Source: Glycera tridactyla
Lineage: Eukaryota
NCBI GenBank assembly: GCA_965644265.1
Contig: OZ286466.1
Coordinates: 24,118,001 to 24,182,000, forward strand
Direction of reading: 5' to 3'
Length of the DNA stretch: 64,000 bases
The translations under genes and the position numbers were made by a program. This document shows positions 8,461 through 16,899 of this stretch, piece by piece. The notes below the pieces were generated by a model, which saw nothing but the letters and a program-made list of their open reading frames with translations, searched no databases and was not told the DNA's origin. Each line of letters begins with the position of its first letter. Positions within the stretch are counted from its first letter, which is position 1.

Positions 8461-9852
8461 ATGCCAGGAACGTCATCACACGATCCTGTGTCTAGAAGGA
8501 CTCGTCAACAGTCTGGACACAAACCTTATTTTTCTCCAGAAGTTCGAAGAATATTCAACATGCCAGACAATCAACAGAATCAACAAGGTGAGCAACCTCA
8601 GCCAGCTATTGACAATGCTATGTTAGCACAAATTCTGGCAGCGTTAGCTAATGCTACTCAGTTAAATACGGATGCTGCGAGTTTGCAGAATGACTCAGCT
8701 AGACAGAAACTACAGAAAAAAGTGAAAATTACACACTTCTCTAGAGACACACATGATGCTGCATCATGGTGGCAATTGTTCTCAGATGCATGTAATGACG
8801 AAAATGTGCCCGAAGATCAAGTATATCGTTTATTCAAAAACAATATCACAGATATAGGAGTTTCGAAGTGGGCTTCAGGCCTATCAGACAATGTCAGAAA
8901 CTCTAGAAATGAACTGCGCCATGCTTTCTTAAAGCAATTTGGCAAATCTCCCAGAGAACTAGAAACTGCTCAGCTAGAACTTCCGAAAATCAAACAGAGA
9001 GCATCAGAATCCGCCAAAGACTTTATACTTCGATTGGAACAGAGCTTCAGAGAAGCTTATCTACTGTCACAAAACGAACAATTGTCGGAATCACAAAATA
9101 AACACCTAGTCGCGCTCATTAGAGCAGGTTTGCAACCCCACATCCAGAGTGTAGTGTGGCAGGCGGGAGCCAATACGATCGAGGCCATTACAAATGCAGC
9201 TATAGCTGCGGGAGACGCAAATCATTTCGTGGAACCTTCAATTGATCAGACTGTTCTAGCAGTGACGGAAAAACTAATGCCACTATTCCAACGACAATCG
9301 AATGTGGAATCCTCAATTGAAAAACTAACACAAACACTTGATGAGAAACTAGTAGCAGCCATCTCGTCGGTTACGTCTACCAACAAAGGATCTTATCCAA
9401 GGAGTCGTTCAGCAAGCCGAGAAAGGAGTAGAGAAAGGAGAATCTCATTCGCCGAGGACAACAAAGGTAAAAATAAGTCTACTTCTTCCTTTCATGATAC
9501 AGGGTCGCAACCAAATTCCTCAAACAAACCCAAATTTGAAGGTTCATGTTATTACTGCAACAAGAAGGGCCACCGCATCGCACAATGCAGAACACGCATT
9601 CGAGAACAAGGAGCTGCTTCAAACTTTCAAAATCCGGGAGCAAACTTTCAAAATTCGGGAGCAAACTTTCAAAATTCGGAAGCTAACAGTTATCAAAATT
9701 CGTCGCAATACCTTCACAACGCACACGGAAACATGTTTCCCAACATGGCATCAAATTATCACTCAAATTCAAATGCTTTTGCTCCGATTTGTCAAATTTG
9801 TCAACAAACGGGCCATGTCGCACTTACGTGCCCGAAATTCAAAAGAAACTAG
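8461..9852 (+). CDS. gag: Gag (463 aa) with two CCHC zinc knuckles
   Basis: CYYCNKKGHRIAQC and CQICQQTGHVALTC; retrotransposon gag-like helical region; position directly after the PBS. Confidence 0.93.
   Translation: MPGTSSHDPVSRRTRQQSGHKPYFSPEVRRIFNMPDNQQNQQGEQPQPAIDNAMLAQILAALANATQLNTDAASLQNDSARQKLQKKVKITHFSRDTHDAASWWQLFSDACNDENVPEDQVYRLFKNNITDIGVSKWASGLSDNVRNSRNELRHAFLKQFGKSPRELETAQLELPKIKQRASESAKDFILRLEQSFREAYLLSQNEQLSESQNKHLVALIRAGLQPHIQSVVWQAGANTIEAITNAAIAAGDANHFVEPSIDQTVLAVTEKLMPLFQRQSNVESSIEKLTQTLDEKLVAAISSVTSTNKGSYPRSRSASRERSRERRISFAEDNKGKNKSTSSFHDTGSQPNSSNKPKFEGSCYYCNKKGHRIAQCRTRIREQGAASNFQNPGANFQNSGANFQNSEANSYQNSSQYLHNAHGNMFPNMASNYHSNSNAFAPICQICQQTGHVALTCPKFKRN
8585..8593 (+). promoter_or_regulatory. 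Predicted splice donor in gag (AAG|GTGAGC, exon ends 8587, phase 1)
   Basis: Near-consensus 5' splice site whose phase matches the acceptor at 16012. Confidence 0.6.
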
Positions 9853-12800
9853 GAAGCAGCTCCTCATCTCTCGAATGGGTTCATGAATTGTGAAAATGTT
9901 GATTTGCAATATGATGTATGTGAAAATGTGGTGATGGGATTGCATAATATTGATGTATGTAAATGTTTGGAATGTACACATCTTGCTGAGAATGAAGTTC
10001 CAATTATTTGTGAGAATATCAGTGAAACAATTGCAGGCGTGGATTCATCTTCTTTGAAACCAATGAATGATCAAACGGGCAGGCTGTATAATAATACGCA
10101 GATAGGTGGCATGGTTTGCAATGCTATTTCAAGTAGCAATCTCAAAAACATCAATTTGTATGAATATGCGCCGTCTAGCACATATCAAAAACGGGTGCCG
10201 CCACTTCCCGTAACAATCAATAGAAGCATAGCAGATGGGGGTAATTCAATTAGCGCACTCACTTTTGAAGAGAGTGACACAAACAATACGCCAGTGTCGC
10301 CACCACCTTCAAAATCGGCTCACGGCAGCGTCACAGATGCGGGTAATCCACTCAGTGAGCCCACATCAAAAGGTGTCATAAACAATAGCTCAGTGTCGCC
10401 ATCAACATCACTGTCGGCTCATGGCAGCGTGACAGATGCTGGTAATTCAGTTAGCCCACTCACTTCTAAGGGGGGCAACACAAACAACAGCTCAGTGTTG
10501 ACATCAACATCACTCTCTAATCACGGCAGCACAACAGATGCAGATAATTCAACTACCACATTCACTACAATTAAAGGTATAACAAACAAAGAGGTAGTGT
10601 CGGCATCGGCGCCACCGCGTTCTCACGACACCAGATCAAGTGAGCTGCCAATCAGCACCTCTCCTTGCATACGAGATCAAATGACGCCCGTATGTCATAA
10701 AACGGTGTCGGCGTCGGCGTCAATTACACCTCATTGCGATGTCTTGAGTGAGTCAGTGTTGATTGCAACTCACTACGCCGGCCTGAGTAAGCCAGTGACA
10801 GACACTCAGCCTTTGATAGACCGATGTCTATTGACACCAGCATATACTTCAACATCTGCCAGTACTTCAACTCAGACCACGGCATCTTACTCACCCCTTA
10901 CCTATATTAGTCAGCCACAAAATTGGGCAGTATCTCATTCGACCTTTTGGTCACCTAGTGGTAACAAGCTCCAACTAGACGAACCCCACATCTGCTGTGC
11001 TGCTATTAATCATTTCTGGAAGTCTGCTTGTGAGTATACACTATTGGAACCCCCCATTAGTAATCATGATTTCATTGTTTGTTTTGACTATATTTTTGAT
11101 GTATGTATTTTACCTGAACTACCTGCTGTTCCTGTGAATACTCAGTCATGCTGTTTCACTGCATTCAAGCCCATATTGCTGAAGGATTCATGTGAAACAC
11201 ACCAACCACAGGTTGATGCAGTACTACCTATTTTACATTTAAAAGGGAATACAATAGAGGTGGAAGCTTTTAAGGAAGTGTATAATGCATTGGTAGATAC
11301 AGGTGCATCTGTAAATTGTATCTCTGCACATCTATTTTCATCTATTTCGAACAAACATAATATACCACTACAAAGGGACTCTTCTCCTTCTTTCAAAAAC
11401 GCCTCTGGTGAATTAATGAAAAACTTGGGAAAATGTACTATCCCAATTTCTATAGATCACTTCCAGACAGTCTTACATTGCTACGTCATTGAGAACTTGC
11501 CCAAACCAATCTTTTTGGGGCTACCTTTCCTGAAGGACAATCAGGCACAATTAGATTTTTCAAATTCTACCATTGTCTTCCAGAATGGCCTTGTAGCGGC
11601 CCTATTACACCCAGATAACACGAGGCAAACACGTTTTCCATTAAAACCAGTGGATTCTATGAAAATTAGGCCTAAAACAGTGGCCAAGATCCCAGTAAGA
11701 GCTCCTTCAGGATCTTTTGATTCAATTCGGGCATATAAATATGAAGAAAAGTGGTTAATGGAAACCAACTGGGACAATAAACTCAGACAATCAATTATCA
11801 CTTTTGTCAAACCACAGTTCAGACACAAATCAGAAATAGCAGCAGAATTTGATCTTGAGACAATCTCTCAGGATAACACCTCTACAGTCACGGTTATAAA
11901 TAACTCAGACCAACTTATGTATATTGACAATTCTACAATTATAGCATACTGTGAGCCATTCAATACAGAGGATATAATGGAAGTTAATGGCATATCAGAA
12001 AAACGTCGCCAAGAAGTGATACCAGGATACAATACTCATGATCCTAAATTTGATCATATCACTAACTTGGTTTCTAGTGTCACACCAACTCAAAAGTCTA
12101 CTTCATCTTCAATATCTATACAAACTGATATTACGATTTCACCCTCTCTGGAGCATGACTGGGTGTTCACTGAACATGCAGTAGTAGAGGAATCACCACC
12201 AGAGGACATTGTTTATGAAGATTTGGTATGGTCAGATATAGCTGATTTTTCAAATTTGACTTCTGTTCAACAGTCACAATTGATACATGTGTTAGATGAA
12301 AACCGGACATGCTTTGCTGTGAATACTGAGGAAATGCGCACAGTCAATCATGTGCAGCATCAAATTAAATTACTTCCAAATGCCAAACCACATCGCCAAA
12401 GGCCATATAGATTGAATTTAGAGGGACAAAAAGAGATGGATCGTCAAATAGAAAACCTGCTTAGAGATCACGTGATCGAACCAAGCATTGAAAACACATG
12501 GTCTTGCCCAGTGTTTCTAGTCAGGAAAAAGGGCATTTCTCCCAACAGTCCTGTCAAATATAGACTTGTCTGTGATTATAGAAAGCTAAATTCACAAACT
12601 GTGCCTGAATTTCATCCTCTGCCAACATTTGAACAACTGGCAGACAACATTTCAGAAACCAAACCGTCCATATTTTCTGTGATGGATCTTACTCAGGGGT
12701 ACTATCAACTCACAGTACACCCTGCCAGCAGACACCTCACCACCTTCAACACTGGTAGAGGCACCTATCAATGGCGCAAATTGCCCTTCGGGTTAGCTGT

Positions 12801-15909: not shown

Positions 15910-16899
15910 GTGTGTCACTCCATATCTTTTGATAGGATCATCTCAAATCTCTTCTCCCAAGGCGATGACCCGGATTGCTGCAATACTAACTTGACTTTCT
16001 TTTCCCTTTTAGGTTCATACCTTCACTCCCAATTAAGGAAAAAGGGACATTTCACTTACCCTATTCCACGCTCATATGTTGTAGATCCGGACTGGACAAA
16101 ATCGACAAGGGACGGCGGCAGCATGGCATCCTCTTTCTACAGGGTATGGTGGCTATGGATTCTGTGCTGGCTATTGCAAGGTACAATTACAGAAACCCAT
16201 GCCAAATCAATTGAATGGGATGATTTAAAGGACCATCTAAGACCAGGCATTAGACTCCCAAAAATGCACCCTACCTCGGAAAGCAAAAACCCCCAGAGCC
16301 AAGGGTGGACAAACTTCACCTCCCTATCTATACTTCTGATCTTATCAATAATCACCATGATTGCAACAGTTAAAATCTGCAGGAAATGGAGCAACAGACA
16401 TATGCTTCAATTCAGTCTTGTAATCACTTCAGGAACTGAATCCATCTCCCTTGCACTCCAATCCTTACACCTGCCCCTAACTAACCTACATTTTAAAGCA
16501 AAGAACCCATTCACCAACATAGTAGTTCATAGATCGACCTGGAAAAATTCAATCACCTGGAGAGGAAGCATCATCATGGAAGACCGATTATCCAAACTTA
16601 TTGTCCCCATACCCTCTACTATTCCCATCATGCCTTGGACAGCCAAACAACTAGAAGAAATAGTAAAGAATAGATTTTCAATCGCCCTTGCAGCCAAGCA
16701 GCATGGAATAGCCTCATACATAGCCACTCTATGCCCAGACTCATGCCAAACTAAGGATTGCCAAGCCGCCTACAACTTGTCGATGTTCCATCCAGTATTT
16801 TTCAACAATGAGACCGTAGCACCCACCATAAGTATTAAAAGAGGAATTTGGCCGACCCTACCTTGCGAGGAAGATGAACCACTTCAAGACAACGAGTAA
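15910..16899 (+). CDS. ORF3: small env-like membrane protein
   Basis: Hydrophobic signal-like segment after ATG 16123 (VWWLWILCWLL), about 40-aa spacer, TM helix LSILLILSIITMIATV, then about 170-aa tail; lies between integrase and the 3' LTR. Confidence 0.7.
   Translation: MCHSISFDRIISNLFSQGDDPDCCNTNLTFFSLLGSYLHSQLRKKGHFTYPIPRSYVVDPDWTKSTRDGGSMASSFYRVWWLWILCWLLQGTITETHAKSIEWDDLKDHLRPGIRLPKMHPTSESKNPQSQGWTNFTSLSILLILSIITMIATVKICRKWSNRHMLQFSLVITSGTESISLALQSLHLPLTNLHFKAKNPFTNIVVHRSTWKNSITWRGSIIMEDRLSKLIVPIPSTIPIMPWTAKQLEEIVKNRFSIALAAKQHGIASYIATLCPDSCQTKDCQAAYNLSMFHPVFFNNETVAPTISIKRGIWPTLPCEEDEPLQDNE
15984..16013 (+). promoter_or_regulatory. Strong splice acceptor upstream of ORF3
   Basis: TACTAAC branch point (15984-15990), pyrimidine tract TTGACTTTCTTTTCCCTTTT, AG at 16011-16012. 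Confidence 0.8.

Follow-up and report, generated by a model that had tools for sequence, protein, structure and literature searches.

What could a third open reading frame (ORF3) that leaves no room for a fusogen ectodomain contribute to a long terminal repeat (LTR) retrotransposon? The question is raised by a Ty3/gypsy element (Metaviridae) of Glycera tridactyla, found in a window of 64,000 nt (GCA_965644265.1, contig OZ286466.1, positions 24,118,001-24,182,000; positions below are those of the window). An earlier interpretation made from this DNA alone, here called the sequence-only reading, proposed that ORF3 is expressed from a spliced RNA as a Gag(1-42)-ORF3 fusion of about 337 aa, a small membrane protein that is either viroporin-like or an aid to budding or cell-to-cell movement. 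Comparison with related sequences makes clear that ORF3 arose by deletion from a full-size Env of the F type, yet this does not make it a relic: the part that was kept appears to be a self-contained protein module of the parent Env.

Descent of ORF3 from an F-type Env

ORF3 has no match in Pfam, and a word-index protein search with ORF3 alone returned 0 matches. A search of 1.84 billion proteins with ORF3 gave 15 matches, three of which (P0003, P0004 and P0007) were dropped as repeat-rich unrelated proteins. Five of the remaining ones are 792-1013 aa long and carry a basic cleavage site and a fusion-peptide-like segment; one more has 832 aa. In the same genome, residues 20-255 of ORF3 match the ends of many frames of 926-965 aa, and ORF3 corresponds to the C-terminal quarter of these sister Envs. 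The latter possess a signal peptide (signal 1), an F ectodomain that carries a basic cleavage site and a fusion peptide, a first transmembrane helix (TM1), basic residues, a second signal-like segment, about 35 residues, a second transmembrane helix (TM2) and a beta domain, in that order; Baculo_F matches one of the three full sister Envs tested. The second signal-like segment mostly ends in A-E-A or a similar small-residue site, and the short segment between it and TM2 contains an H-x-R/K-P-G motif. The F ectodomain, including its cleavage site and fusion peptide, is absent from ORF3.

The closest degraded relatives, L096 and L042 (66-67% identical), hold an F ectodomain between the counterparts of the two halves of ORF3. 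L096 has both predicted splice acceptors described below and the signal of ORF3, and then continues into the ectodomain; in L042 the ectodomain and TM1 lead into the C-module of ORF3. The deletion joined signal 1 of Env to the second, internal signal-like site; the changeover lies within the signal peptide, at about 16175-16190, with only an approximate left edge because L096 is damaged there. The sequence-only reading had set its small membrane protein against descent by deletion from a full-size F/Env protein, and such descent is what the sister Envs, L096 and L042 point to. An integrase tree (20 hand-picked rows, midpoint root; L096 and L042, having no pol, are not among them) nests the family in the full-Env radiation, with F1 as sister (97/96) to a clade of the family and two env-less families (97/97).

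The protein searches with ORF3 and with alignment A2 revealed no further mini-Env that stands alone. The word-index search with A2 gave three longer proteins and two of near ORF3 length (P0015 and P0034). P0015, P0034 and P0001 start inside or just after TM1 or signal 2 and were set aside as fragments of full Envs. The genomic candidate L104 was also rejected: it lacks acceptor, signal and start, and the deletions of its relatives reach into the domain.

In the 2.04-Gb genome the ORF3 region is represented by at least 11 long copies (89-100% identity), every one of the short form. In eight of these the frame runs uninterrupted to the natural stop, a ninth carries a stop, and the remaining two break off after residue 223-224. 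The pairwise ratio of non-synonymous to synonymous divergence (dN/dS) over the 11 copies, in which pairs are not independent, is 0.30 (0.22-0.41) for ORF3 and 0.17 (confidence interval 0.09-0.26) for its cytosolic domain, as compared to 0.13 for gag and 0.02-0.03 for pol in seven copies. With shared alleles counted once, the cytosolic domain shows 29 synonymous to 15 non-synonymous changes (p 2e-9), and the synonymous excess is confined to the ORF3 frame (9:34 and 5:38 in the other two). The transmembrane and luminal segments reveal no clear constraint. The copies thus agree in keeping ORF3 under purifying selection, which supports the sequence-only reading on this point. Synonymous divergence (pS) among copies is 0.15 in ORF3 vs. 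0.31-0.54 in pol and gag, which suggests that recombination has spread one 3' region over diverged backbones.

Three other env-less lineages in the genome erased the module, so its retention is neither automatic nor required. In an F6-derived lineage, env was lost by three deletions, each removing acceptor and signal, and two of these cut into the domain (five copies). Two nearer env-less families keep at most 44 codons of the env 3' end (12 of 17 loci had pol). In each of the independent env-less lineages (L130-L144, L174-L187) the final 24-95 codons of env DNA persist, corresponding to approximately window positions 16750-16899, with no usable frame, which hints at a cis-acting RNA element.

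Predicted splice signals and the start of the product

The donor proposed by the sequence-only reading is where it was placed, as the cut after 8587 follows 42 codons and 1 nt from the ATG at 8461. The textbook acceptor (acceptor 1) is likewise confirmed, with TACTAAC, a tract in which 16 of 18 residues are pyrimidines, and AG at 16012; exon 2 opens in phase 1, and the join gives 337 codons by arithmetic. When the element interior was resampled by dinucleotides, TACTAAC followed by a tract and YAG came up in none of 500 copies and a MAGGTRAG donor in the first 200 nt in 2 of 300, and the TACTAAC at 15984-15990 is the sole copy in the window on both strands. The donor is kept in eight of nine gag-bearing copies, window included. 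At acceptor 1, all 14 copies keep TAG and nine keep the exact TACTAAC. Acceptor 2, lying 72 nt downstream of acceptor 1, is kept in 14 of 14 copies, and all nine full-Env sister elements (F2 and F3 among them being one family) have a phase-1 counterpart ahead of the signal peptide. A phase-1 donor-like site is found within the first 70 gag codons in 7/8 sister elements. Six sister elements also contain acceptor-like sites further upstream; the phase of these sites is not constant, and with five of them fewer than 20 residues would result. Conserved, in phase and above chance, these signals make it likely that a spliced subgenomic RNA joins the first gag codons to the acceptor ending at 16084 or at 16012. 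A spliced retrocopy was not seen among the top candidates in the genome (0 of 26 gag matches end at the donor; 0 of 34 ORF3 matches start at acceptor 1).

The candidate ORF3 products are 337, 313, 304, 280 or 258 aa long, and the candidate starts read M-P-G, M-P-D and M-A-S. An in-frame ATG at 16123 stands just 5' of the first hydrophobic segment; one otherwise open copy is without it, which fits an upstream start. In the F6 Env, no Met occurs between the acceptor and residue 42, and the first Met of the F1 Env falls within the hydrophobic core, so both need a gag-derived start. Since frameshifting indels separate the copies upstream of acceptor 1, the first 35 codons of the stop-to-stop frame of ORF3 are noncoding. 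Between the acceptors (16013-16084), shared alleles amount to 0 synonymous and 7 non-synonymous (neutrality p 0.36), six of the seven forming one haplotype. The contrast with the 54:55 found downstream has a Fisher p of 0.014, and weakens to p 0.24 once L096 is included as outgroup over a shorter stretch. The ORF3 frame shows coding constraint only from acceptor 2 onward; therefore, while the arithmetic behind the 337-aa product holds, a product of 313 aa is at least as likely. An alternative frame that overlaps the ORF3 start (16014-16214) was rejected, since no 5' donor reaches it from a start and its selection signal is mixed; it is open for 66 codons in most copies and has stops in two of 11.

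A predicted matrix-like domain and its possible role

Both hydrophobic segments reported by the sequence-only reading are present, about 35-40 aa apart. From its sequence, however, the first is better read as a cleavable signal peptide than as a second span: it is homologous to the Env signal peptide, and the Ala column at the cleavage site is nearly invariant in alignment A2. Signal peptidase would remove the leader after T-H-A, and the mature product would be a type I protein of ~231 aa whose cytosolic domain is basic. Because of this removal, any choice of start and acceptor would yield the same mature protein.

With its first segment read as a signal peptide, ORF3 is very unlikely to be a viroporin-like or FAST-like small fusogen that spans the membrane twice and is made as a Gag(1-42)-ORF3 fusion of 337 aa, although the splice signals for such a fusion look real and are in phase, and env-less MDG1 elements do pass between cells with a small membrane protein (PMC11952523). 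A viroporin is a small oligomeric helical channel without a large soluble domain, whereas ORF3 would have one predicted transmembrane helix after cleavage, and the bulk of the protein is modelled as a folded beta domain of 120 aa. The ~33 luminal residues and the basic residues behind the helix do resemble the ~30-residue ectodomain and basic patch of FAST-like proteins, but this is a generic feature. No Met-Gly myristoylation start was seen, and the product of 258-337 aa compares with 63-107 aa for sORF2 and with 63-200 aa for single-pass, N-myristoylated fusogens of the sORF2/FAST-like kind in general. The absence of synonymous alleles between the acceptors speaks against the 337-aa form in particular.

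In fold searches, the predicted domain has as its closest structural neighbours, along almost all of its length, matrix (M) proteins of Mononegavirales: those of Borna disease virus (BDV; 3F1J, 4HIT), Newcastle disease virus (4G1G), measles virus (7SKS), respiratory syncytial virus (2VQP) and human metapneumovirus (4LP7), and also filovirus VP40 (5B0V, 3TCQ, 1H2C). Borna-, measles- and Ebola-type viruses bud with the help of such proteins. Like BDV M, the cytosolic part of ORF3 is predicted to be a single domain of BDV-M size and is net basic (11 K+R, 5 D+E). The models indicate that it probably has the single-domain Mononegavirales matrix fold. No sequence match to a matrix family was found in Pfam or among PDB sequences, very remote kinship being beyond such searches; rhabdovirus M is absent among the fold-search matches listed, which excludes nothing. 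The domain could instead be of the LEA_2/TMEM106 type or another generic beta-sandwich, its likeness to matrix proteins being an artefact of prediction. We consider this unlikely, although the matrix matches have low Z and the Atlas features of the domain score 0.84 to LEA_2-bearing clusters (40% of members).

The top structural matches for both the full and the domain model are glycoproteins of chu-like and related arthropod viruses (1041-1235 aa, BFVD). For the full model E is 7e-4 to 4e-2; for the domain model the probability is 0.75-1.00, the TM-score 0.37-0.48 and E 0.013-0.17. The matches of both models come without a position inside the glycoproteins. These predicted similarities suggest that the long chu-like glycoproteins carry a similar module. 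Chuviruses are not known to have a recognised M gene.

Matrix proteins line the viral membrane and connect cores to glycoprotein tails (PMC3887258). In foamy viruses, Gag has no membrane-targeting signal, and a membrane subunit derived from Env provides its budding link (PMC7828637). The foamy virus Env leader peptide differs in being N-terminal, type II and furin-released; the analogy is functional only and no homology is claimed. Based on these two precedents, we read the module as a capsid-to-membrane adaptor. ORF3 represents the C-terminal part of an F-type errantivirus Env that purifying selection has preserved since the fusogen was deleted, and we see about an even chance that it acts as a membrane-anchored matrix-like adaptor that tethers capsids to the membrane for budding or transfer. 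That it assembles under the membrane and recruits Gag is a tentative proposal, which we hold at a little below even. The parent Envs would be polyproteins consisting of a fusogen and a membrane-anchored matrix-like protein, and the ORF3 family would have kept only the latter. At its second signal the parent polyprotein would release the same ~231-aa product, which the deletion would thus preserve. With the module, elements of the ORF3 family would be able to bud into vesicles, be delivered at cell contacts, or borrow the fusogen of a sister family. Of the roles offered by the sequence-only reading, the budding aid fits the modelled fold, and the viroporin is unlikely.

The main competitor is a host-facing accessory protein, which would alter trafficking, signalling or immunity, or would block the entry or budding of Env-bearing sister elements. 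ORF3 was kept after the loss of the fusogen, when a role in the virion would seem pointless, the genome holds many full-Env sister families, and the immunomodulatory roles of matrix proteins (PMC3887258) are compatible with a matrix-like fold. We nevertheless regard it as rather unlikely, because in the parent a single polyprotein yields module and fusogen in a 1:1 ratio, as befits a component of the virion, and because Pfam and fold searches found no match to a host domain. It is highly improbable that ORF3 is a slowly decaying remnant, left in frame by a chance deletion, with its constraint inherited from the full-Env ancestor or acting on RNA in the 3' region. The env 3' ends kept by env-less lineages, with their hint of an RNA element, would agree with such a remnant, as would an ORF3 pS of a third to half that of pol. 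However, all 11 long copies are of the short form, so that the simplest account dates their differences to after the deletion, barring a return of 3' segments through recombination; the synonymous excess is in the ORF3 frame only; and the acceptors have been preserved together with the signal peptide and its cleavage site.

If the adaptor reading is carried over to the parents, the ancient F-type errantivirus Envs could, with roughly equal chances for and against, be F-plus-M polyproteins that contain a membrane-anchored homologue of Mononegavirales matrix proteins, freed by signal peptidase; these retrotransposons would then bud with a fusogen class and a matrix fold that they share with paramyxoviruses and bornaviruses. 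Chu-like viruses may hide a matrix in the same place.

The element, related systems and significance

The element is full length (8013-17982), with LTRs, a target-site duplication, gag, and pol domains in the order protease, reverse transcriptase, RNase H and integrase (Table 1). The two LTRs are identical and flanked by the CCTG duplication, so the insertion is very recent, as the sequence-only reading held. All three frames are open in two of six near-full-length other copies inspected. Gag matches zf-CCHC (E 1.8e-4) and PNMA (0.02) in Pfam, and neither a matrix domain nor an N-terminal Met-Gly myristoylation start was seen in it. The same gag-TAG-pol phase occurs in family copies and sister families.

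Table 1. Coordinates of the element and of its predicted signals and domains in the window
Feature	Position	Strand	Remarks
Target-site duplication CCTG	8009..8012	+	5' side; repeat at 17983-17986
5' LTR	8013..8434	+	422 bp, TG...CA, same sequence as 3' LTR
Primer-binding-site-like stretch	8437..8452	+	begins TGG, directly 3' of LTR; putative role
gag	8461..9852	+	463 aa; zinc knuckles; TAG stop; second in-frame ATG at 8560
Predicted donor AAG/GTGAGC	8585..8593	+	cut after 8587; phase 1
pol (protease, reverse transcriptase, RNase H, integrase)	9853..15582	+	gag frame, behind TAG
pol C-terminal tail, chromodomain-like by eye	15360..15785	+	frame differs from pol in window copy only
ORF3	15907-16899	+	stop to stop
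Predicted acceptor 1	15984..16012	+	TACTAAC 15984-15990, pyrimidine tract, AG 16011-16012; phase 1 to ORF3
Predicted acceptor 2	16055..16084	+	CTTAC branch-like site and TATGTTGTAG; AG 16083-16084; phase 1 to ORF3
Internal ATG and hybrid signal peptide	16123..16203	+	predicted cleavage after T-H-A; deletion junction near 16175-16190; dN/dS 0.24
Short luminal segment	16204..16302	+	H-[LVI]-[RK]-P-G motif, also in full Envs
Transmembrane helix, then basic residues	16306..16386	+	
Cytosolic beta-sandwich domain	16399..16761	+	predicted matrix-like; conserved Cys cluster at end; pLDDT (model confidence) 88.8
C-terminal tail and stop of ORF3	16762..16899	+	dN/dS 0.34
3' LTR	17561..17982	+	

The C-terminal tail of pol has no Pfam match and is in frame with pol in 11 of 11 other copies; the break in the window copy is either a recent mutation or an assembly error in a low-complexity linker. 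A profile comparison of the cytosolic domain of ORF3 with this tail gave no match. In the stop-codon region (9850-9880), a motif coding for H-L-S-N follows the gag TAG by 12 nt in the eight copies of the family that showed the pattern, and most sister families have comparable motifs 3' of the gag stop. This suggests stop-codon readthrough, a mechanism used by gammaretroviruses. No stable hairpin was found in the first 81 nt behind the stop (z +1.15). From the gag stop to the protease (9853-11230) there are ~450 variable Ser/Thr-rich residues with imperfect repeats of ~100 nt, and a long pre-protease stretch is present in sister families too. Two upstream ORFs were noted by eye 5' of gag (8275-8448 and 8436-8456), a hydrophobic one of 57 codons from the LTR and one of six codons at the LTR edge. 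One internally deleted copy (L035) has the 5' LTR and part of gag fused to the pol tail, with ORF3 open; in another (L033) the 5' LTR is tandemly doubled. Elsewhere in the window, a 33-bp tandem array (7135-8000) lies immediately upstream of the insertion, a long 54/51-bp array with strong G skew (0.58) covers 41700-48000, and two inverted arrays of 64-bp units (54018-55469 and 58567-60082), ~3.3 kb apart, resemble a foldback element.

Several known systems share features with ORF3. Chary and Hayashi (PMC13524379) described ancient Ty3/gypsy errantiviruses with the same gag-pol-env order and an F-type Env. ORF3 descends from an Env of this type but lacks the whole ectodomain and TM1. Their paper analyses the ectodomain, and its five passages that mention a transmembrane feature are silent on a second signal, TM2 and a cytosolic domain. 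Spliced env and its repeated loss are also known: Senti et al. (PMC12992720) reported that functional env-F was lost in Drosophila iERV, as opposed to the retained and selected sub-module of the ORF3 family. The sORF2/FAST-like proteins of MDG1 (PMC11952523) are likewise small membrane proteins of fusogen-less elements, but they are mostly myristoylated, unspliced, without a folded cytosolic domain and not derived from Env. CERV of the C. elegans element Cer1 (PMC10309623) is another accessory protein made from a spliced RNA of a Ty3/gypsy element, although it is a nuclear RNA-export factor and not a membrane protein. In the freely accessible literature covered, no description of a second Env module, a matrix-like fold or fusogen-free retention was found. 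The portions of PMC12583693 and 10.1101/2024.12.15.628590 that were covered contain no mention of a matrix fold or a second membrane protein in retrotransposon Env or chuvirus G.

How Ty3/gypsy capsids reach the membrane and take up Env is an open question, as the Gag studied here shows neither a matrix domain nor a myristoylation start. A matrix-like protein within the Env polyprotein, if true, would be a testable answer for a widespread class of elements; errantiviruses and negative-strand RNA viruses, linked through the fusogen, would then also be linked through their budding machinery. Such a protein would also mean that a matrix module is useful without a fusogen. The natural deletion in the ORF3 family isolates this module and shows that it is under selection without fusion, and a protein of 230 aa should be easy to express and solve. 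In general, the finding points to a candidate matrix within the long glycoproteins of chu-like viruses.

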